DNA of 62,323 bases, filler included, from a bacterium (GTDB lineage Bacteria > UBA9089 > CG2-30-40-21 > SBAY01): NCBI GenBank assembly GCA_040757115.1. It is 11 parts of 11 records of this genome, joined end to end, with 100 filler letters (N's around TTAATTAATTAA, not from the genome) between each part and the next. Parts side by side here need not be neighbours in the genome. Positions count along the whole stretch, not along the records: positions 40,023 to 45,531 come from JBFLYA010000247.1; 10 more parts are not named here. One strand, written 5' to 3'. The position numbers were made by a program, and so were the translations under genes. Position 1 is the stretch's first letter; every line of letters begins with the position of its first letter. The notes under the pieces were generated by a model. That model searched no databases, was not told the origin of the DNA, and worked only from the letters and a program-made list of their open reading frames with translations. Shown one piece after another: positions 1 through 45,856 of the stretch.

Positions 1-120
1 CCACAATCAATTTCTACCTATTTCTATAAATTTCAATCTATTTCTATTATCTTATCTCCATATCACTCTTATCTCCTTATCCCCTTTCTTACACTTTTGA
101 TATATAGCCTGAACGGTTAC
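1..120. mobile_element. Right part of a dispersed miniature element ending in CCTGAACGGTTAC (GTAA-end family)
   Basis: Same sequence as 11584-11703. Its left part, starting GTAAGCGTTCA, is at 56589-56727 and overlaps 1-32 in sequence. Confidence 0.85.
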
Positions 121-246
121 AAAAAATGTAATCTGTTTAATCAATTATCCTTTTATTTCTAATTGCACAGGTCGAAAAAATTCGCTAATTCTGTAATGGC
201 TCAGTCATTCAGGGGTAAGTGCGGATTTCAGATTATTTTTTTATCT

Positions 247-3200: not shown

Positions 3201-5690
3201 TACTTGCCTCACCAACATATAGAACACCACTACTGTCAATAGCAGGAGAAGAATAAATAGGTCCAATCGCAGAATAAGGTGAAAGCCAATTAGCACTACC
3301 ATCAGATTTTATCGCATATAGTTTGCCAGCAGGTTCAATTGTTCCAAAATAAATAACCCCATTATGACCAATTGCCGGTGAGGAATAAATATCGACACCC
3401 GTATTATAAGTCCATTTACTAACGACCGAAATTGGGTCAGGATAAGAACTCACACCGGTATGAGACCGATTATATCGCCACATTGGCCACATATGGGTTA
3501 GTCCCGTAACTGTAATCGTTGCCCTTTGACTCACGGTGCCATAATTTGCGGTTAATGTCCCCTCACCTGCCTCCATACCCGCGGTAAATGTTGTTGTTCC
3601 ACCGACAATTGGAGAAATAGTGCCTATAGTTACTAACCAATTATAAGAAAGACCCGGAATATAATTACCATACTGGTCATAGCCTGATGCAGTAAAAATC
3701 TTAGTGTAGCTCAACTGAACCGTTGCAGTTGCAGGATTAATAACAATAGAAGTAAGCGTGCCCGGGGTAATAGTAATCGTCGCTATCGTCGTAATAGAGC
3801 CTGATGTTACGGCTAATGTCCCGGTCAATGCTCTGGTTCCTGCCGTAAAAGTTGTAACTGACCCTTCAACTGGTGAAACACTACCAATATTTGTTGTCCA
3901 GGTATATGTTATCCCGGTTACAGTCCCACCTAAAACATCATATCCCTGTGCCGTAAATGATATAGTCCCATTAACCGTTGTCGTGGCTGTTTGTGGTGTA
4001 ATAGTGATATGATGTAATCCACCGGTAGTTATCGTAATAGTTGCTTTAGCCGTAACAGTCCCTGAAATAACCGCTAAAGTCCCGGTAACAGGTTGAGTGC
4101 CTGCGGTAAATCTGGTTGATGAACCAATAGTTGGCGTAACACTTCCTATCGCCGTTGACCAGTTGTAACTTAAATCAGGAATTGCGTTTCCATACACATC
4201 ATATCCCTGGGCGGTAAATGTTATTGTGCCAGAAATCATAAGTGTTGCGGAGGAAGGAGTAATAACAATATAATTTAATGTCCCGACCCTAATAGTTATT
4301 GTTGCATAATTAATCACATTACCAAAACTTACGGCTAATGTGCCAACTACGGAATGAGTGCCTGCTGTAAATAGTGTTTGACTCCCTGTAGTTGGTGAAA
4401 TACTACCAATTAATGTCTGCCAGGTAAAGTCTAAATTCTCGATTAGATTATGTTGGTTATCATAGCCTTTAGCCGTAAATGTTCTTGTCCCTTCGATTCC
4501 CACAGTCGCCGTCGCTGGCTCGATTATAATATAGCTTAAAGTTCCTGCAACAATAGTAATAGTAGCAATATTGGTTATCGTGCCATAAGTAACCGTAAGT
4601 GTTGCGGTTTGAGTCGTTGTCCCGGCTGTAAATGTTGTTCTGGTGCCAGTAGTTGGTGTAATACTACCAATGACTACCGAGAAATTAAAAATAAGCCCTG
4701 CAATGCAATTATTGTACTCATCATACCCTTGAGCCGTAAATGTTCTTGAGCCACCTGTTGATACAGTTGCAGTTGCGGGTGTAATAAGAATAAAGGTTAT
4801 CGTGCCTGGAGTAATAGTAATCGTTGCCACACCCGTAATACCACTTGAGGTAAAAGTTAATGTCCCGGTAGTAGCATAAGTTCCAGCAGTAAATAATGTT
4901 TTGGTTCCGGTAGTTGGATGGACACTGCCAATTGCTGTTGCCCAGACAGAAGATAACTCTACAGGATTTCCATAGACATCATAGCCAGTTGCTGTAAATG
5001 TTGTTGTTCCTTGCACCGATAAACTTGCCGTTGATGGGTTGATAATAATACAGGTTAATGTGCCTGGGATAAGCGTAATAGTTGCGATTGCAGTGCAAGT
5101 GCCAAAATTAACCGTAAGTGTTCCGATTTCACTTCTTGTCCCAGCAGTAAAGAGTGTCTGAGTCCCTGAACTCGGAGCAACACTACCAATAAAAGTAGTC
5201 CAGTCAAATACCAGGCCAGAAATAAGATTATCATAACTATCATATCCTTGTGCTGTCCATGTCCGTGTGCCAGCCACCATAAGTGTTGCTGTAGATGGAG
5301 TGATAATGATATAATTTAGTGTCCCCGGAAGAATAGTAATCGTTGCGGACGAACTAATAGTGCCATAACTTGCCGTAAGACTGCCTATACCGGTTCTTGT
5401 GCCAGCGATGAATAAGGTTTCAATGCCGGTAGTATTAGAAACAGAACCAATGGTGAATGACCAGGTAAAAATCAGGTCTGGAATAGAGCTGTCAGAATCA
5501 TCATATCCAGTGGCAGTAAATGTGCGTGTGCCATCTACTATAAGTGTAGCGGCCGATGGAGTTATGACGATGTAACTAATCGTGCCTGACCTGACAGTAA
5601 TGGTAGCACAAGCAGTAATCGAACCATAGTAGGTAGTTAGACTACCTACACCGGTTGTTGTTCCAGCAGTAAAGAGTGACAATGTCCCTA
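247..5690 (-). CDS. Giant secreted/surface protein, 5' end cut by contig edge: Ig-like (Big_2-type) repeats, PQQ-like beta-propeller, cohesin-like, dockerin-like, second cohesin-like domain and a C-terminal YPNP..GIYIY sorting-like domain
   Basis: ~87-aa T-rich repeats (ITP..AT..FTAQGYD), SSPAIG.DG.VYVGS.D blades, paired Ca-binding motifs GDANQNGVFDGTD and ADCNRDGVIDDID, C-terminal YPNP...SGIYIY. Confidence 0.8.
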
Positions 5691-5790
5691 NNNNNNNNNN
5701 NNNNNNNNNNNNNNNNNNNNNNNNNNNNNNNNNNTTAATTAATTAANNNNNNNNNNNNNNNNNNNNNNNNNNNNNNNNNNNNNNNNNNNN
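5691..5790. other. Artificial contig linker (also 11480-11579, 17250-17349, 22951-23050, 28642-28741, 34301-34400, 39923-40022, 45532-45631, 51132-51231, 56728-56827)
   Basis: 100-bp N block with central TTAATTAATTAA (stop codons in all frames). Confidence 0.98.
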
Positions 5791-39723: not shown

Positions 39724-40231
39724 CTATTCCGCCACTGATTATAGCACTTATTAATCGAAATTTGACATAGATATGGCTATGAAATTCCAAATCACAAATT
39801 CCAAATTCCATTTAGTGAATTAGTGAATTAAGCGAATTAGCGAATTAGTAAAATCTAATCTCTAATTCACTAATCTCTAATTCGCTTTTTGGTATGTGGA
39901 ATTTGGTGCTTATTTGAGATTTNNNNNNNNNNNNNNNNNNNNNNNNNNNNNNNNNNNNNNNNNNNNTTAATTAATTAANNNNNNNNNNNNNNNNNNNNNN
40001 NNNNNNNNNNNNNNNNNNNNNNGCAGAGCTGTCCACAACTTACCCACAATTGCTTGGATAACTCCTTTGGAGTTACCCACACTCTCCACATCACTACCAG
40101 TACTAATAATTAATTTTTTAATTTTATTTTCAACCCCCAACCCCCAATCTTGGGGGATTTAATAAGGAATTAAGATTGTGGCATTCAAAATGACCAACAA
40201 TATATATTATACGAGGAGGATAGAAGATAAA

Positions 40232-40516
40232 ATGTCTGATGAAATTAAAGAAACACCTCCAGAAGAAGGTAACTTTTTGGACCTTATTTCTATGTTATCT
40301 ACTTCTGGAATGATTCATTTGGGTGAAATAAAAGACCCAATTACTAATGAAAGCAAAGTGAACCTTGAAGGAACCAGATGGAGTATCGATATGTTGGGAA
40401 TATTAGAAAAAAAGACTAAAGGAAATTTAACTAATGAAGAAAGTGAGATATTAGTGAATGTTTTATATAATCTAAGAATGAAATATCTGGAAGCACTAAA
40501 GAAGAAAGAAGGTTAA
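40232..40516 (+). CDS. DUF1844-like protein (start revised)
   Basis: LGEIKDP, IDML.ILEKKTKGNLTNEE..L..LR; GAGGAGG RBS. Confidence 0.75.
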   Translation: MSDEIKETPPEEGNFLDLISMLSTSGMIHLGEIKDPITNESKVNLEGTRWSIDMLGILEKKTKGNLTNEESEILVNVLYNLRMKYLEALKKKEG

Positions 40517-40524
40517 GGATAAGG

Positions 40525-41676
40525 ATGAAATTTGAATTTATTGCCCCAGCAAAGATAATATTTGGCGAGGAAAGTAGTGCCACGGTTGGCATTGAAACGA
40601 AAAGATTTGGCAAAAAAGTATGTTTGATTACGGGTAAAACGGCGATGGCTAAAAGTGGTATTTTGAATAATGTGCGTAAGTCTTTAGAAGATGCAGGATT
40701 AGAAGTAATTCTCTTTGATAAAGTGACACCTGAACCGACTATACAAATGGTTGATGAAGGATTATCATTAGTTAAAAGAATCAAATGTGAAGTGGTCATT
40801 GGACTAGGAGGCGGAAGTTCCTTAGATGTGGCTAAGGCAGTAGCAGGTTTAGCCAATGATGGTGGTGATTGTGCTGAATATCAAGAAGGTAGAAAAATAC
40901 AAAAAGAAGGATTACCATTTATTGCTATACCAACTACGGCTGGAACAGGTGCAGAAGCAACTTATAACGCAGTTATTATTAATGAAGAAAAAAAGGTTAA
41001 ACAAAGCATTCGAGATTATTCGTTAATGGCAAAGGTAGCGATTGTTGACCCCACATTAACTTTTACACTTTCTTCAAATATGACGACTATTTGTGGGATG
41101 GATACCTTAGTTCATCTTATAGAAGGTTATGTTTCAAATGGGGCTAATCTTTTAACAGATTCATTAGCTCTTCAAGGGATTAAATTAGTCAGTGCAAGTT
41201 TAAAAAAGGTAGTTTTCGATGGTCAGGATAAAAAGGCAAGAACAGATATGTCTTTAGCCTCATTGCTTGGTGGGTTGGTATTAGCCAATGCTGGTTTGGG
41301 GGCTGTCCATGGATTAGCCGCTTCTTTAGGACCGTTATACAATCTCCCACATGGCCTGGCCTGTGCGGTTTTACTCCCTTATGTTATGGAGTATAATTTA
41401 GAAGCCGCTATTCCAAAGTTTGCCCAAATTGCTTATCTTCTGGATAAACAAACCACGACTCTTTCAACCGAAGGAGCGGCTTTTGAATCCGTAGTTTTAA
41501 TCGAAGAATTTATCTCAAGTCTAAAATTACCTTTTAGTTTAAGCAGTCTTGGTGTTCAAGAACAGGATTTACCAATTATCGTTCAAGGGGTCTCTTCTTC
41601 TTTAAAATATAACCCACGAGAGGCGAATTTTAAAGATTTGCTTAATATCCTTAAAAACGCTCTGGTTGGAGAATGA
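40525..41676 (+). CDS. Iron-containing alcohol dehydrogenase
   Basis: GGGSSLDVAK, PTTAGTGAE, DTLVHLIEGY, HGLA, HG. Confidence 0.93.
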   Translation: MKFEFIAPAKIIFGEESSATVGIETKRFGKKVCLITGKTAMAKSGILNNVRKSLEDAGLEVILFDKVTPEPTIQMVDEGLSLVKRIKCEVVIGLGGGSSLDVAKAVAGLANDGGDCAEYQEGRKIQKEGLPFIAIPTTAGTGAEATYNAVIINEEKKVKQSIRDYSLMAKVAIVDPTLTFTLSSNMTTICGMDTLVHLIEGYVSNGANLLTDSLALQGIKLVSASLKKVVFDGQDKKARTDMSLASLLGGLVLANAGLGAVHGLAASLGPLYNLPHGLACAVLLPYVMEYNLEAAIPKFAQIAYLLDKQTTTLSTEGAAFESVVLIEEFISSLKLPFSLSSLGVQEQDLPIIVQGVSSSLKYNPREANFKDLLNILKNALVGE

Positions 41677-41868
41677 TAGACAAAATTAGAAATTGAAAAA
41701 AGGTAACCTTTAGCCATCTGAGGGTGTAAATAAGGGAAAATGGAAAAAACCGGGAAAAAGAGAAAAAAATAGGTGATGATTAAGATGTCCGTTTGGTCGA
41801 AGGAATAACAAAAGATATAATGCTGTGTTTTATCCGTGTTAATCTGTGGCTGAATAAAATAATAATTA

Positions 41869-41927
41869 GGCTAACAAGTCGTTAGAGCGGACGTGCTAAC
41901 GCACGCCGCTGAACTCTGTCGTTAGCA
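41869..41927 (+). other. attC site (59 bp)
   Basis: GGCTAAC...GTTAGCA with internal AGCGG.CGTGC / GCACG.CCGCT dyad. Confidence 0.85.
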
Positions 41928-41949
41928 ATAAAATAAAAGGAAATTCCGA

Positions 41950-42210
41950 CTGCCTATTATATCCAGATTTTTCGGTATAGTAATACGGATGTTCTACGAT
42001 GAGCATAGTCCTCCTCACTTACATGCTGAGTACCAAGGGAGCAAGGCAGTTTTTGATTTTGAGGGTAATATTGCAAAGGGAAGTTTAGGTTCCAGGACAG
42101 CGACCAAGCTTGTCAGAGAATGGATAGATTTACATCTTGGTGAGATTGAAAAAGATTGGCAGCTGGCAAGTGAAGGAAAAGAAATAAGAAAGATTGCACC
42201 ATTGGATTGA
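41950..42210 (+). CDS. DUF4160 protein, putative toxin-antitoxin component; probable CTG start
   Basis: (M)PIISRFFGIVIRMFYDEHSPPHLHAEY...KIAPL. Confidence 0.85.
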   Translation: MPIISRFFGIVIRMFYDEHSPPHLHAEYQGSKAVFDFEGNIAKGSLGSRTATKLVREWIDLHLGEIEKDWQLASEGKEIRKIAPLD

Positions 42211-42228
42211 GGGAGGCGAGATATAAAT

Positions 42229-42471
42229 ATGTGGAATATGAACGAGGTTCAAGAAATTAAATACAATAGAGATTATATCTATCATATTGTATTTGACGAT
42301 GGGAAAAGGGGCAATGTTGATTTTTCCGAATATATTGCTAAAGGCCCTGTGTTTAAGCCGTTGCGAGATTTAGCATTTTTCAGAAAAGCCATAATTGATG
42401 GGGGGACAATAGCATGGCCGAATGGTGCCGATATTGCGCCAGAAACATTATATGATAAAATAAATTGCTAA
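42229..42471 (+). CDS. DUF2442 protein, putative partner of DUF4160
   Basis: [28 protein letters not shown]; stop codon overlaps the attC R'' box. Confidence 0.88.
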
Positions 42472-42597
42472 CAAATCGTTGCATCGGACGGCAGGGACTA
42501 TGCCGCTTGTCAGAGTTTTGCGGGTTATCAAGGTTTTATCTTGCTAACAAAGGTTGGTGGTAATTTTCCTCGCCGCCGCTGAACTTTAGCGTTAGAC
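42466..42597 (+). other. attC site (132 bp)
   Basis: TGCTAAC..TTGCATCGGACGGC ... GCCGCCGCTGAA..GTTAGAC. Confidence 0.85.
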
Positions 42598-42659
42598 TTC
42601 AGTTGAGTAAATAGTTACGAAGAAAGTAAGTAGGGTAGGGGGAGCAAGGAGAATAATGA

Positions 42660-43205
42660 ATGATGAAATATAAATTAATAGGAATTTTACTCATAATCTT
42701 TGGCTATATATCTCCTTCAGGAGCGCAAGACTATAGCTCACTGGGAAAATCTGTCTATTCCTCGAAATTTTATGGGAGTAAATATTCACAAGGGAAAAAG
42801 AAAACTACACCTTTAAAATCAATAGAACAAAGCAGTGGGTTATTATATGAGCGTGGGACATCTACTTTAAGAGGTGGAACTCACACCCCCACAGGATTAT
42901 TATTATATAAATATGCTAAAAAAACTGAACCTGTTCCCTATGTGCCTATTTCGAAAGTAGCAACTTCTACCCTGACTTATACGACAACTGATTATGCAAC
43001 CGCAGAAAGATTGAAAGTTGAAGAACCTATGTTTAGTCCCTGGTTAGGGCAATCGATTTATAAAAAACTATCTGAACAAGATAAAGATGATACCCCTGCA
43101 TATTATTCCCCAACAGAAAGAAAAAATGATTATTACCAGCAATATTACTCTAATATTTTTTATAAGGGGAAAAATCCACCTGATAAAAAAGGTAGTGTTA
43201 AATAA
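42660..43205 (+). CDS. Hypothetical secreted protein
   Basis: AGGAG RBS, signal-peptide-like N-terminus. Confidence 0.6.
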   Translation: MMKYKLIGILLIIFGYISPSGAQDYSSLGKSVYSSKFYGSKYSQGKKKTTPLKSIEQSSGLLYERGTSTLRGGTHTPTGLLLYKYAKKTEPVPYVPISKVATSTLTYTTTDYATAERLKVEEPMFSPWLGQSIYKKLSEQDKDDTPAYYSPTERKNDYYQQYYSNIFYKGKNPPDKKGSVK

Positions 43206-43513
43206 AACATAGAAACCGCATTAATCTTGTAACTATTTAGCCATCTGGAGAATGAAAATAAAGGGATTCGGGACTCGGGATTCGGGACTCGGGAATAAAA
43301 GAATTCCTTAACCCCTAAATCCGAACCCCGAGTCCAATTTTCAGGGGAAAGGAAGTTTCACGCAAAGAACGCAAAGGGAAATAAGGGAAATAGATAGGTA
43401 GGAGATAGAAGGTAGGAGGTAAGGAGATAGGCGTGAGGAGTGATGTTTTCTTTACTTTCTACTTTCTACTCTCTACTTTCTACTTCCTATTTTCAGGCGA
43501 AAGGAGATAAACA

Positions 43514-45301
43514 ATGCAACAATATCGAACGAACCTATTAATTTGTGCGGGCACTGGTTGTGTTGCCAGTGGTTCATTAAAGGTAAAAGCATCATTAGAA
43601 GAAGAACTTAAAAAACATAATCTGCAGGATGAAATTGGAATAGTTTTAACCGGGTGTAATGGTTTCTGTGCTCAGGGACCATTAATGGTTGTTTATCCAG
43701 AAGGTATATTTTATCAAGGACTTAAACCAGAAAATATACCATTTTTAGTTGTAGAACATTTCTTGAAAGGGCGACCTGTTAAGGACTTAATGTACACACC
43801 TCCAGCAGAAAAAGAACCTGTTCCGGCAATGAGAGATATTCCATTTTTTAGCCGTCAGATATTACGGGCTTTACGGAACCGTGGTTTGATTGATGCCGAG
43901 AAGATTGATGAATATATTGCCCGCGATGGGTATCTGGGTGCATCTAAAGCATTACTTGAAATGACCCCGGAAGAAATAATCCAGGAAATAAAAGATTCTG
44001 GGTTACGAGGTCGAGGTGGTGCTGGTTTCCCAACCGGGTTAAAATGGGAATTTTGCTCTAAGGCGAAAGGGGATATTAAGTATATTTTATGTAACGGAGA
44101 TGAAGGAGACCCAGGGGCATTTATGGATAGGTCTATATTAGAAGCTGACCCACATGCGGTTTTAGAAGGAATGATTATTGGAGCAAAGGCAATTGGTGCT
44201 CATAAAGGCTATATCTATGTTCGAGCAGAATATCCATTAGCCGTGAAACGACTTGAGATTGCTATTGAACAGGCAACTGACTATGGACTTTTAGGAAAAG
44301 ATATCTTAGGTTCAGGGTTTGATTTCGAAATAGAGATTTATCAAGGGGCAGGGGCATTTGTTTGTGGTGAAGAGACCGCATTAATGACATCAATTGAAGG
44401 AAAAAGAGGAATGCCGCGACCAAGACCTCCATTTCCGGCTCATAAAGGACTCTGGCAAAAACCATCGGTATTAAATAATGTAGAGACATTTGCCAATGTT
44501 CCCCAGATTATTCTTAATGGAGGAAGTTGGTATGCCAGTCTTGGCACTGAAAAGAGTAAAGGAACTAAAGTATTTGCTTTAACGGGTGCAATAAACAATA
44601 TCGGTTTAATAGAAGTTCCAATGGGTATCCCATTACGCCAGATTATCTATGATATTGGAGGTGGCATAAAGAATAGGCGTAAATTTAAGGCAGTCCAGAT
44701 GGGTGGTCCTTCGGGTGGTTGTATTCCAGAAAGTCTTTTAGATATCCCGGTTGACTATGAATCTATTACCCAGACTGGTGCAATTATGGGTTCTGGTGGA
44801 ATGGTTGTTATGGATGAAACAACCTGTATGGTTGGAATTGCTAAATTTTTCTTAGAATTCACTCAAGATGAGTCTTGTGGTAAATGTATTCCCTGTCGAG
44901 TAGGAACAAAGGTAATGCTTGATAAATTAGAAGAAATTACCTCAGGACAGGGAAAAGAAGGTGATATTGAATTATTAGAAGAATTAGCAGAAGATATTAA
45001 AAATACATCTTTATGTGGGCTGGGACAAACAGCACCTAATCCCGTATTAACGACCATTAAATATTTCCGGAGCGAGTATGAAGCACATATTAAAGAAAAA
45101 TATTGTCCCGCTCATTCTTGCTTGCCTTTATTGAAGTTCGAGGTAATTCCTGAGTTGTGTAAAATGTGTGGTCAATGTGCCAAAAGTTGTCCTGTAAGTG
45201 CTATTACCTGGGAAAAGAAACAAGTAGCAAAGATAGATAAAGAGAAATGCATTCGATGTAAAACCTGTATTACCAGCTGTCGCTTTATGGCGATTGAATA
45301 A
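43514..45301 (+). CDS. NADH-binding flavoprotein subunit (HndC/HydB/NuoF-like) of a bifurcating-type oxidoreductase
   Basis: N-terminal thioredoxin-like 2Fe-2S, GRGGAGFPTG, NGDEGDPG, CGKCIPCR..C, C-terminal 2x[4Fe-4S]. Confidence 0.9.
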   Translation: MQQYRTNLLICAGTGCVASGSLKVKASLEEELKKHNLQDEIGIVLTGCNGFCAQGPLMVVYPEGIFYQGLKPENIPFLVVEHFLKGRPVKDLMYTPPAEKEPVPAMRDIPFFSRQILRALRNRGLIDAEKIDEYIARDGYLGASKALLEMTPEEIIQEIKDSGLRGRGGAGFPTGLKWEFCSKAKGDIKYILCNGDEGDPGAFMDRSILEADPHAVLEGMIIGAKAIGAHKGYIYVRAEYPLAVKRLEIAIEQATDYGLLGKDILGSGFDFEIEIYQGAGAFVCGEETALMTSIEGKRGMPRPRPPFPAHKGLWQKPSVLNNVETFANVPQIILNGGSWYASLGTEKSKGTKVFALTGAINNIGLIEVPMGIPLRQIIYDIGGGIKNRRKFKAVQMGGPSGGCIPESLLDIPVDYESITQTGAIMGSGGMVVMDETTCMVGIAKFFLEFTQDESCGKCIPCRVGTKVMLDKLEEITSGQGKEGDIELLEELAEDIKNTSLCGLGQTAPNPVLTTIKYFRSEYEAHIKEKYCPAHSCLPLLKFEVIPELCKMCGQCAKSCPVSAITWEKKQVAKIDKEKCIRCKTCITSCRFMAIE

Positions 45302-45856
45302 AATAAACATAGCCGTTCACCGCACAGACGCAGAGAAAAAAATTAAAATCTATTCACCAGAGACAGAAATTTCCTTTTTTTGTGCATTTCGGGTCTTTCG
45401 TTGTTTATAGCGGTTATTAACTGGAAGTTTACATAGGATAATACCCATAAATAAGGCATGAGAATAATCGTTCCGTTAGGAACATAATATCGGTAGGAAT
45501 AGATAGACAAATCAATCAGTTCCGTAGGAACNNNNNNNNNNNNNNNNNNNNNNNNNNNNNNNNNNNNNNNNNNNNTTAATTAATTAANNNNNNNNNNNNN
45601 NNNNNNNNNNNNNNNNNNNNNNNNNNNNNNNGATTTGTAATTTTACATTTTGATGTTTGATTTTTAATTTATTTTATGGTATTCCAGAAAAGTGGAAGTT
45701 AATTTTGCAAAAACCATTAGGTTCGCTTTCCTGCTTGCCAGAAGCGAGGCTAAAGCCTTGCACTACAAATTTTCCACCTGTGCGGTTAGATTGACCTTCC
45801 TCACATCTTTAAAACCACGAAAGACACGAAGGGCACGAAGAATTATAAAGCAAATC

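Follow-up and report, generated by a model that had tools for sequence, protein, structure and literature searches.

How does a gene cassette with two attC recombination sites come to lie between two housekeeping genes, with no integron integrase beside it? This question is raised by a block at positions 41703–42618 of a stretch of DNA of 62,323 bases (the window, along which all positions are counted), which consists of contigs of about 5.5 kb from one draft genome, linked through N spacers. The genome (G000; 462 contigs, 4.3 Mb, 37% G+C) is that of an uncultured groundwater bacterium and belongs to the candidate phylum Desantisbacteria. Clusters of attC sites lacking an integron integrase (CALIN) are a category of their own in IntegronFinder. 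Such clusters are common, and three routes to them are under debate, namely loss of the integrase, rearrangement through transposons and insertion by the integrase IntI at genome sites. The block described here is a miniature inverted-repeat transposable element (MITE) of the IS66 type, called MITE-A, the interior of which is occupied by a slice of an integron array. Its anatomy, the families to which its parts belong and the position of both inner joints within the MITE can be read directly. As to how the slice arrived, we give about an even chance to the reading that MITE-A already lay in the spacer behind an alcohol dehydrogenase (ADH) gene when its interior was replaced, through microhomology-mediated recombination, by an array slice of about 800 bp.

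Two attC sites without an integrase

Nineteen attC sites, none of which lies on the block's contig, C165, served to build a covariance model (R1). It holds 27 pairs, six of them with compensatory changes, and RNAalifold gives these 19 sites the textbook attC shape, in which R'' and R' form a stem of 5 bp, the unpaired spacers are of unequal length and the L''/L' stem is bulged. When R1 was run over both strands of the window at E ≤ 1, only two matches were found: attC1 (41867–41928, plus strand, 35 bits, E 1.3e-7, over the full model span with the variable loop deleted) and attC2 (42464–42598, plus strand, 110.9 bits, E 1.9e-29). Both sites align along the whole model, with R'' paired to R' and L'' to L'. 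A first-pass annotation, made from the sequence alone, had taken the two attC sites and the toxin-antitoxin-like gene pair for an integron cassette, and had named a covariance model as the check; both sites passed it, and the two genes match Pfam DUF4160 and DUF2442.

Independent profiles agree with the model. A held-out nhmmer profile of the short type, made from four seeds, matches attC1 with an E value of 1.3e-17, and the bottom strand of this site folds into a single bulged hairpin (−17.3 kcal/mol, z −4.59, equalled by 0 of 200 shuffles). Its relatives lie on contigs C109, C181, C249 and C423, on the last of these just past broken intI pieces. The second site, attC2, is matched at E 1.4e-30 by a held-out nhmmer profile of 59 unique array sites from other contigs, a profile that has 140 matches on 46 contigs. 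It is a full-length member of a family of attC sites of about 132 nt and aligns end to end with 76 other sites (BLAST, nhmmer), while a private A–T compensatory pair, GGCAGGG/CCTCGCC, links its two halves. The canonical stem is absent from the free-energy fold of attC2 (138-nt strand, z −2.07); the covariance alignment shows it. Both sites are confirmed as genuine attC sites and as members of the genome's own attC families. Rfam, applied to the window at gathering thresholds, returned two tRNAs only and no attC family match, and a regular-expression scan for attC pairs was dropped when it gave seven matches against 14 in the reversed control.

The spacing between attC1 and attC2 is about 540 nt, and no intI is found nearby, that is, within the 5.5-kb contig. 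At least two close attC sites with no nearby integrase make this locus, within the contig, a CALIN; the intI gene, attI site and promoter that stand beside the array in a complete integron are not found on C165.

The IS66-type ends

At its outer ends the block reads GAAAAAAG/GTAAC (41695–41707) and GTTAC/GAAGAAAG (42614–42626). The left side, 41695–41797, matches contig C202 with 85% identity over 105 nt (E 1e-11), with more copies on C115, C143 and others, and the right side, 42596–42621, is 96% identical to C202 and 93% to C115 (E 1e-5). The copy on C202 is enclosed by a perfect 8-bp duplication, GAAAAAGG. Compact members of the MITE-A family measure about 110–190 bp and have imperfect inverted repeats of about 33 nt that end in GTAAC and GTTAC. 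The right-end motif was found in 15 of 25 genomes of the phylum and seven times in G000, compared with seven matches over all 25 genomes for the reversed control. Among 29 right ends examined in relatives, 14 have a recognisable left end within 1.5 kb, and nine of these 14 are bounded by 8-mers that match in at least seven of eight positions. A match of at least 7/8 at the spacing of the block arose in 298 of 399,265 random genome pairs, a chance of 7.5e-4.

The relation to IS66 is seen in two places. In a related genome (G024, contig C211) the right inverted repeat lies about 30 nt past the C-terminus of an IS66 DDE (PF03050) transposase, and on contig C198 of G000 ends of the GTAAGCGTTCAGG type surround a broken IS66 DDE gene. 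IS66 elements generate 8-bp target duplications (ISfinder). A published IS66 inverted repeat starts with GTAAGCG (PMC12888890). The GTAAC/GTTAC ends are confirmed as those of a genuine IS66-type MITE family that makes 8-bp target duplications, which bears out the IS66-like ends with a 7/8 duplication of the first-pass annotation. These ends had also been called minimal, which does not fit a left arm of about 100 bp of MITE. The only open reading frames (ORFs) within the block are the two cassette genes, with no transposase gene among them, and the IS66 DDE genes found in G000 are all broken or partial; the element can probably no longer move.

The inner joints

The left part of the slice comes from inside a cassette. 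Positions 41799–41861 are 97% identical (63 nt, E 7e-25) to positions 4471–4533 of contig C20, which lie within an array cassette, and a 39-mer at 41823–41861 is a high-copy repeat shared exactly with C20. The homologies to MITE-A and to C20 overlap in GAAGG, a microhomology of 5 nt, and it follows from this overlap that the slice starts mid-cassette. The repeat at 41823–41861, a small hairpin here called MITE-B (...TATCCGTGTTAATCTGTGGCTGAATAA), has more than 100 BLAST matches in G000 and frequently occurs in inverted pairs about 200 bp apart; its summed contig depth is 17,660, compared with about 295 for the flanks.

At the right joint the R' box of attC2, GTTAGAC, runs straight into ACTTCAGTTGAGTAAATAGTTAC, where the family consensus reads GTTACACTTCAC. 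A microhomology of 3 nt, ACT, lies there inside a 7/8 match between the array sequence GTTAGACT and the MITE consensus GTTACACT. GTTAGAC is the commonest R' box of the arrays (31 of 111 attC sites), whereas the MITE consensus is GTTACAC and a G at the fifth position of the box was found in 0 of 29 other MITE copies sampled. TTAGAC is therefore a stub of about 6 nt of the next cassette, which places the joint 3' of the point at which IntI cuts. The first-pass annotation had the next cassette cut after about 20 bp; what lies beyond these 6 nt is the right inverted repeat of the MITE. Since the tips of the repeats point outward, the inner joints are no transposase joints. Both are microhomology joints within the MITE, neither a clean IntI exchange at G|TT nor a transposase cut.

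The insertion site in related genomes

The site was compared with that of a sister species of the same genus (G001), with four genomes from other genera of the same family (G002–G005) and, for the cassette, with a genome of the same order (G006). In G002–G005 the ADH gene directly adjoins the homologue of the gene for a 181-aa protein that lies to the right of the block, with spacers of 5 to about 300 bp that hold no attC site. Compared with the ancestral gene order of the family, the block is thus an insertion, and its position between housekeeping genes, as first annotated, agrees with their being direct neighbours in four other genera. The expectation that relatives join the ADH gene to the gene at 42660 was borne out in these four and not in G001, where the site is occupied; the expected single GAA(A/G)AAAG at such a junction is unreadable, as the spacers of G002–G005 are too diverged for an empty site to be defined at base level.

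In G001 the ADH side of C165 is matched with 98% identity up to window position 41703. The homology stops at 41703/41704 and resumes at about 42607–42612, which agrees with the boundaries first annotated, 41703 and 42618. At the same site G001 carries another IS66-type element, GTAAGCGTTCAGG.../...GGTGAACAGTTAC, between the same GAAAAAAG and (C)GAAGAAAG, with the junctions GAAAAAAG/GTAAGCG... and ...GTTAC/C/GAAGAAAG. The G001 element is an IS66-type composite split over contigs C428 (L010) and C110 (L021). It contains a complete MITE of about 560 bp, unrelated passenger DNA in which a promoter-like site and a small ORF are seen, and, at the right end, a gene that is read inward.

A shared pair of imperfect 8-mers would be hard to obtain by two independent insertions, which suggests that an IS66-type element was present at the site before the two species split and that its interior has been exchanged since then. 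With another element lying between these imperfect 8-mers in G001, the site would have been occupied before the slice arrived, and it is mainly for this reason that capture in place is favoured over delivery of a finished unit.

Origin of the slice

The course of events would then be as follows. A non-autonomous IS66-family MITE, now the block at 41703–42618, would have transposed into the spacer between the ADH gene and the gene for a secreted protein, producing the 8-bp target duplication. An 800-bp slice from a chromosomal integron array would later have taken the place of its middle. This slice comprises the final 70 nt of a cassette without an ORF, attC1, one complete cassette of the DhiT/DhiA type, attC2 and about 6 nt of the next cassette. 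The slice would have entered by microhomology-mediated recombination, illegitimate or by template switching, with neither excision by a transposase nor a clean IntI exchange, most probably after the MITE had landed, as occupancy of the site would predate the slice. The product would be a two-attC cluster without integrase, a CALIN.

The alternative closest to the first-pass annotation, in which the ends cut a slice out of an array and moved it, is that the slice was caught between IS66-type ends inside an array, as a pack-MITE or a trimmed composite of two MITEs, and was then moved as a unit by an IS66 transposase acting in trans, which would have made the 8-bp duplication. Such a course is possible, though we think it rather unlikely. 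The outer ends are intact and bounded by a 7/8 duplication, cassettes do receive IS66-type MITEs (on contig C123, 90 nt past an attC, there is a GTAACCGTTCA end), and the failure to find a parent copy is consistent with a move rather than a copy; both passenger-bearing IS66 elements (PMC12888890) and MITE-integron-MITE units with duplications (PMC3575428) are described. However, more events are needed (a MITE into the array, two internal joints and a transposition), the right repeat measures only 23–29 nt and the left one is a base short of the family consensus, G000 and 25 related genomes yielded no second copy of the unit, and the IS66 DDE genes found in G000 are broken or partial throughout. 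If the unit had been delivered after the two species separated, the different element of G001 between the same 8-mers would also be left unexplained. The mid-cassette start and the 97% identity to C20 uphold the slice itself as first annotated; its excision and transport find no support in the microhomology joints. A quite improbable third course is insertion by IntI at a secondary, attG-type site, in which attC2 of a two-cassette circle would have recombined with the GTTACAC box in the right repeat of a resident MITE and a later deletion would have removed the centre of the MITE and the 5' part of the first cassette. It would account for the coincidence of the right joint with the R' box of attC2, at which place the consensus of the MITE is GTTACAC; G000 has an intact intI, and insertion at GWT sites has been demonstrated experimentally and proposed as a source of small CALINs (10.1101/2022.09.11.507474). 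Yet an exchange at G|TT would leave TTACAC, whereas TTAGAC is observed, the form present in 31 of 111 array sites and in 0 of 29 MITE copies. The left edge, mid-cassette at a GAAGG microhomology with no G|TT or GWT cut, would need a second, unrelated event.

An assembly chimera was also considered, namely a mis-join at the 39-nt repeat at 41823–41861 or within attC2, by which the cassette would belong elsewhere or a far larger array would lie here. The assembly was checked with Logan contigs of the likely source run, which span 41300–41852, 41832–42554 and 42532–43000. Such a chimera would be favoured by the fact that Logan contigs break at both repeats and that the 39-mer is exact in C20. It is nevertheless very unlikely indeed: the exact repeats are just about 40 nt, well inside single short reads, the private A–T pair ties the halves of attC2 together and so supports the link within this site, and the depths of the three pieces agree (295, 311 and 260). 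Moreover, the joint between MITE-A and MITE-B and that between attC2 and the repeat each lie within a single Logan contig, and even with alternative pairing array DNA would still lie in the MITE. No Logan contig connects the ADH gene to the 181-aa gene without the block. An apparent joint of 41739 to 42591, with 30 nt on its shorter side and its middle unread, was considered as an excision product and is taken as another copy of MITE-A. Two exact-pattern scans of metagenome contigs, one for the left and one for the right flank, returned 0 records.

Several observations weigh against capture in place after landing. The spacer holds different small palindromic or inverted-repeat elements in G002, G004 and G005, and as it receives other small repeats, independent insertions in G000 and G001 are possible; miniature repeats seem to settle by preference in this position behind the ADH gene. 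Between G000 and G001 the IS66-type ends are much less alike than the 98%-identical flanks, so that a single ancestral insertion would require an unexplained replacement in at least one lineage. The G001 insert is spread over two contigs, and its unassembled middle could carry cassettes, although R1 finds none in what is assembled. A mechanism that does not recognise attC has nothing but the 7/8 match to explain why the right joint coincides with the R' box of attC2. The Logan contigs break at exact repeats of about 40 nt (41823–41861 and about 42515–42554), where the links depend on the original assembler. In the assembly, which represents arrays poorly, the cassette has no parent copy; tblastn recovered two paralogues, the nearest with 46% protein identity, so a copy-type mechanism working from the genome's own arrays has left no trace. 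Finally, this is a one-off instance and not a demonstrated recurrent route. An attC site with an IS66-type right end at most 120 nt downstream was found once among 138 in G000, a search for L' box, R' box, 8–38 nt and repeat tip gave one real fusion in 25 genomes (two matches in G001 were coincidental), and R1 found no attC in other copies of MITE-A.

The toxin-antitoxin cassette

The cassette is complete. Its start, TTAGCA at 41922–41927, complements the TGCTAA at 42466–42471 of its own R'' box, and the whole box, TGCTAAC (42466–42472), is the exact complement of GTTAGCA at 41921–41927, as had been read in the first-pass annotation. A homologue in G006 has 74% nucleotide identity, the same start TTAGCAATA and the same R'' box TGCTAAC, and is preceded by a different attC. 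It sits in a row of small two-gene units with products that are toxin-antitoxin-like by eye. From these boundaries the cassette reads as a real mobile unit. G000 has three more DUF4160 genes, on the attC-bearing contigs C461, C36 and C311. R1, a lineage-specific model, gave no match at 33 loci of DUF4160 homologues from other phyla or at the G006 locus, which carries no weight as to whether these are cassettes.

The two genes are on the same strand with the putative toxin first and a gap of 18 nt. The closest named relative of the toxin gene is in a metagenome-assembled genome of Candidatus Desantisbacteria. Positions 1–65 of the DUF4160 profile are matched if this gene is read from upstream of its ATG. 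The codon at the start position is CTG, and the first ATG, at 41989, would cost 13 conserved residues; 77 of 80 homologues have a start codon at aligned position 1 (ATG in 65, GTG in 11, TTG in one). The likely source run has no alternative base at this CTG, though contigs may mask rare variants. The DUF2442 gene has GGGAGG 12 nt upstream, and its stop codon lies inside the R'' box of attC2. Comparison with G006 points to strong purifying selection on both genes, with a dN/dS of 0.07 for the toxin gene and a pN/pS of 0.19 for the antitoxin gene, where dS is saturated. With CTG in place of a start codon the toxin is probably attenuated, while the antitoxin gene is intact.

A sigma-70 scan of 41600–42700 found no plus-strand promoter. 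A TATAAT at 41817–41822 with a three-of-six match, TTGGTC, 17 nt upstream spans the joint between MITE-A and MITE-B; it is below the threshold of the tool and was given no weight. No terminator-like site was found between the ADH gene and the cassette, which has no space for a promoter of its own and is probably transcribed by read-through from the ADH gene.

DhiT/DhiA of Dickeya dadantii 3937 is a working type II toxin-antitoxin module (PMC8198452). The pair in the block is likened to it by its domains, DUF4160 and DUF2442, and by its gene order, toxin first. The pairs differ in that the genes are separated by 18 nt in the block and overlap by 3 nt in Dickeya, and in that the toxin gene of the block has CTG at the start position.

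Integron content of the genome

The block was first described as having no integrase on its contig. No TIGR02249 match is found on C165, among 16 matches genome-wide; this carries little weight, as the contig is 5.5 kb long and ends just 1.7 kb before the block on the left and 2.9 kb beyond it on the right, and intI occurs elsewhere in G000. One intI is intact above the TIGR02249 cut-off (contig C322, 368.6 bits against 265) and is divergent from an attC array. This answers half of the expectation that intI and the parent array would be found elsewhere; neither a parent array nor a second copy was found. A second match above the cut-off, on C223, is broken by a stop codon, and shorter intI pieces lie on C423, C22, C18, C251, C62 and C20, the last of which also holds six long attC sites. 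At E ≤ 0.001 R1 finds at least 135 attC sites in G000, with 150 candidates scored. A literature search found no paper that joins Desantisbacteria and integrons.

For an uncultured genome of 4.3 Mb this is a very large integron complement, with examples at C322:13643–24086 and on C223, C22, C461, C456 and C36. At C423:207–1449 two adjoining intI pieces (model positions 1–164 and 160–315) lie within 120 nt of a short-type attC on the opposite strand, an uncommon orientation for an integron platform. An ORF-less cassette of about 322 bp that ends in a long attC is repeated many times (C57:22820–23140, minus strand, and many array contigs), with a BLAST cover depth of 26 to 120 along its length in G000 and 55 matches in G001. 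One solo copy lies in otherwise unique DNA of a 32-kb contig and may have been inserted as a single attC away from any array. G001 was searched for empty-site alleles of two solo attC loci, on C57 and C408, and no IntI signature was readable: the flanks of the C57 site are missing from G001, and the C408 flank there also runs into attC-like sequence.

Relation to known systems

Two-cassette CALINs are the commonest size class, with 1362 of 2961, and both rearrangement of arrays by transposable elements and insertion by IntI at genome sites (attG, GWT) have been proposed for the origin of CALINs (10.1101/2022.09.11.507474). The block shares with them its two attC sites some 540 nt apart and the lack of a nearby intI. 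It differs in that its cluster lies within the inverted repeats of one MITE, starts mid-cassette and has breakpoints that can be read per base; it resides in the genome of an uncultured member of Desantisbacteria, in which attC sites number at least 135. Single attC sites lacking an integrase (SALIN), the attG type in the same source (10.1101/2022.09.11.507474), resemble the block as cassettes outside an integron in an IntI-encoding genome, and the right joint of the block lies at an R'-like GTT box. In contrast, the block has two attC sites instead of one, its left edge lies in a truncated cassette and is no cassette boundary, and its right joint is 3' of G|TT and reads GTTAGAC instead of the GTTACAC of the MITE.

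Integron DNA within non-autonomous inverted-repeat elements and with a target duplication is also described for the MITE-integron-MITE of Acinetobacter and the Integron Mobilization Unit, in which two complete MITEs stand around a whole class 1 integron with intI (PMC3575428). The block is instead a single IS66-type MITE, of a different element family, with one left arm of about 100 bp and one right repeat of 23–29 nt; it has no inner ends and no intI, and its interior is an integrase-less slice. The tIS66 elements, such as ISPa75 with fosZ, have the same GTAA(G/C)C ends with passenger DNA inside, but keep tnpA, tnpB and the DDE gene (PMC12888890), whereas the block has no transposase and a passenger derived from an integron. 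Known already, then, are CALINs, passenger-bearing IS66 elements and transposon-mediated rearrangement of arrays. What is new is that, in a candidate phylum, a single IS66-type MITE has had its interior replaced by an integrase-less slice that starts mid-cassette, and that the microhomology joints can be read.

Features, flanking genes and neighbouring repeats

The features of the block and its flanks are collected in Table 1. The gene order on C165 (window 40023–45531) is a DUF1844 gene, the iron ADH gene, the block, the 181-aa protein gene and a NuoF-like hydrogenase subunit gene.

Table 1. Features of the block and the genes on either side, in window positions.
Feature	Position	Strand	Basis
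Left target-site duplication copy, GAAAAAAG	41695..41702	+	7/8 match to 42619-42626; same 8-mer in G001
MITE-A left arm, about 100 bp; begins GTAACCTTTAGCC, terminates in microhomology GAAGG (41799-41803)	41703..41803	+	C202 match
3' remnant of an ORF-less cassette ("cassette X"): right half of MITE-B plus 7 nt before attC1	41799..41868	+	C20 match
attC1, short type, 59 nt; R'' GGCTAAC, R' GTTAGCA	41869..41927	+	R1, nhmmer, hairpin
Complete cassette; starts with TTAGCA behind the G|TT of attC1, ends with the G of attC2 R'	41922..42591	+	Sequence, G006 homologue
DUF4160 gene, DhiT-type putative toxin	41950..42210	+	Pfam 4.2e-15
DUF2442 gene, DhiA-type putative antitoxin, intact	42229..42471	+	Pfam 1.4e-16
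attC2, long type, 132 nt; R'' TGCTAAC, R' GTTAGAC	42466..42597	+	R1, nhmmer
MITE-A right terminal inverted repeat, ACTTCAGTTGAGTAAATAGTTAC	42596..42618	+	C202, C115 matches
Right target-site duplication copy, GAAGAAAG	42619..42626	+	Sequence, G001, chance test
Left flank: iron-containing alcohol dehydrogenase (ADH), housekeeping	40525..41676	+	Pfam Fe-ADH 9.6e-53, ADH_Fe_C 1.1e-46
Right flank: 181-aa protein, signal-peptide-like N-terminus, no Pfam family	42660..43205	+	Sequence analysis, Pfam

Two more short dispersed repeats lie between the 181-aa and hydrogenase genes, at 43388–43502 and 43263–43295; the one of 115 nt recurs with 95–97% identity at five or more further places in G000, and also at several in G001 and G003. 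Elsewhere, an abundant IS66-type repeat ending in ...TATATAGCCTGAACGGTTAC occupies window positions 1–125 and most contig ends of G000 (for example those of C158, C160, C155 and C10). The initial 40 bases of C158 are present at about 150 places, and many contigs start or stop in this repeat, which is therefore a main cause of the fragmentation of the assembly. The spacer at 5691–5790 and all other contig junctions of the window consist of 44 N, a 12-nt linker and 44 N; the linker is palindromic, matching itself on both strands, and is an artificial spacer with no biology.

Significance

Every breakpoint of this cluster can be read: transposon ends and a target duplication on the outside, microhomology joints on the inside, and array content that starts mid-cassette between them. 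The locus thereby provides a concrete case on which the three proposed CALIN routes can be scored, and a CALIN of two attC sites need not stem from IntI alone. A bolder idea, to which little probability is given, is that the box GTTACACT, situated in the inner part of the inverted repeat of the IS66-type MITEs of this phylum, mimics the R' core of attC together with the commonest cassette start, GTTAGACT, and acts as a landing pad for cassettes, through IntI or through template switching stalled at a hairpin. If this were true, transposable cassette carriers would spread array slices to housekeeping loci; integron recombination would be coupled to IS66 transposition, and the present locus would be the first example caught. 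As a single instance the block changes no concept. It is a worked example of how an integrase-less cassette cluster may originate, in a genome that, judging from the literature search, is a rich and apparently undescribed system for the interplay of integrons and MITEs.

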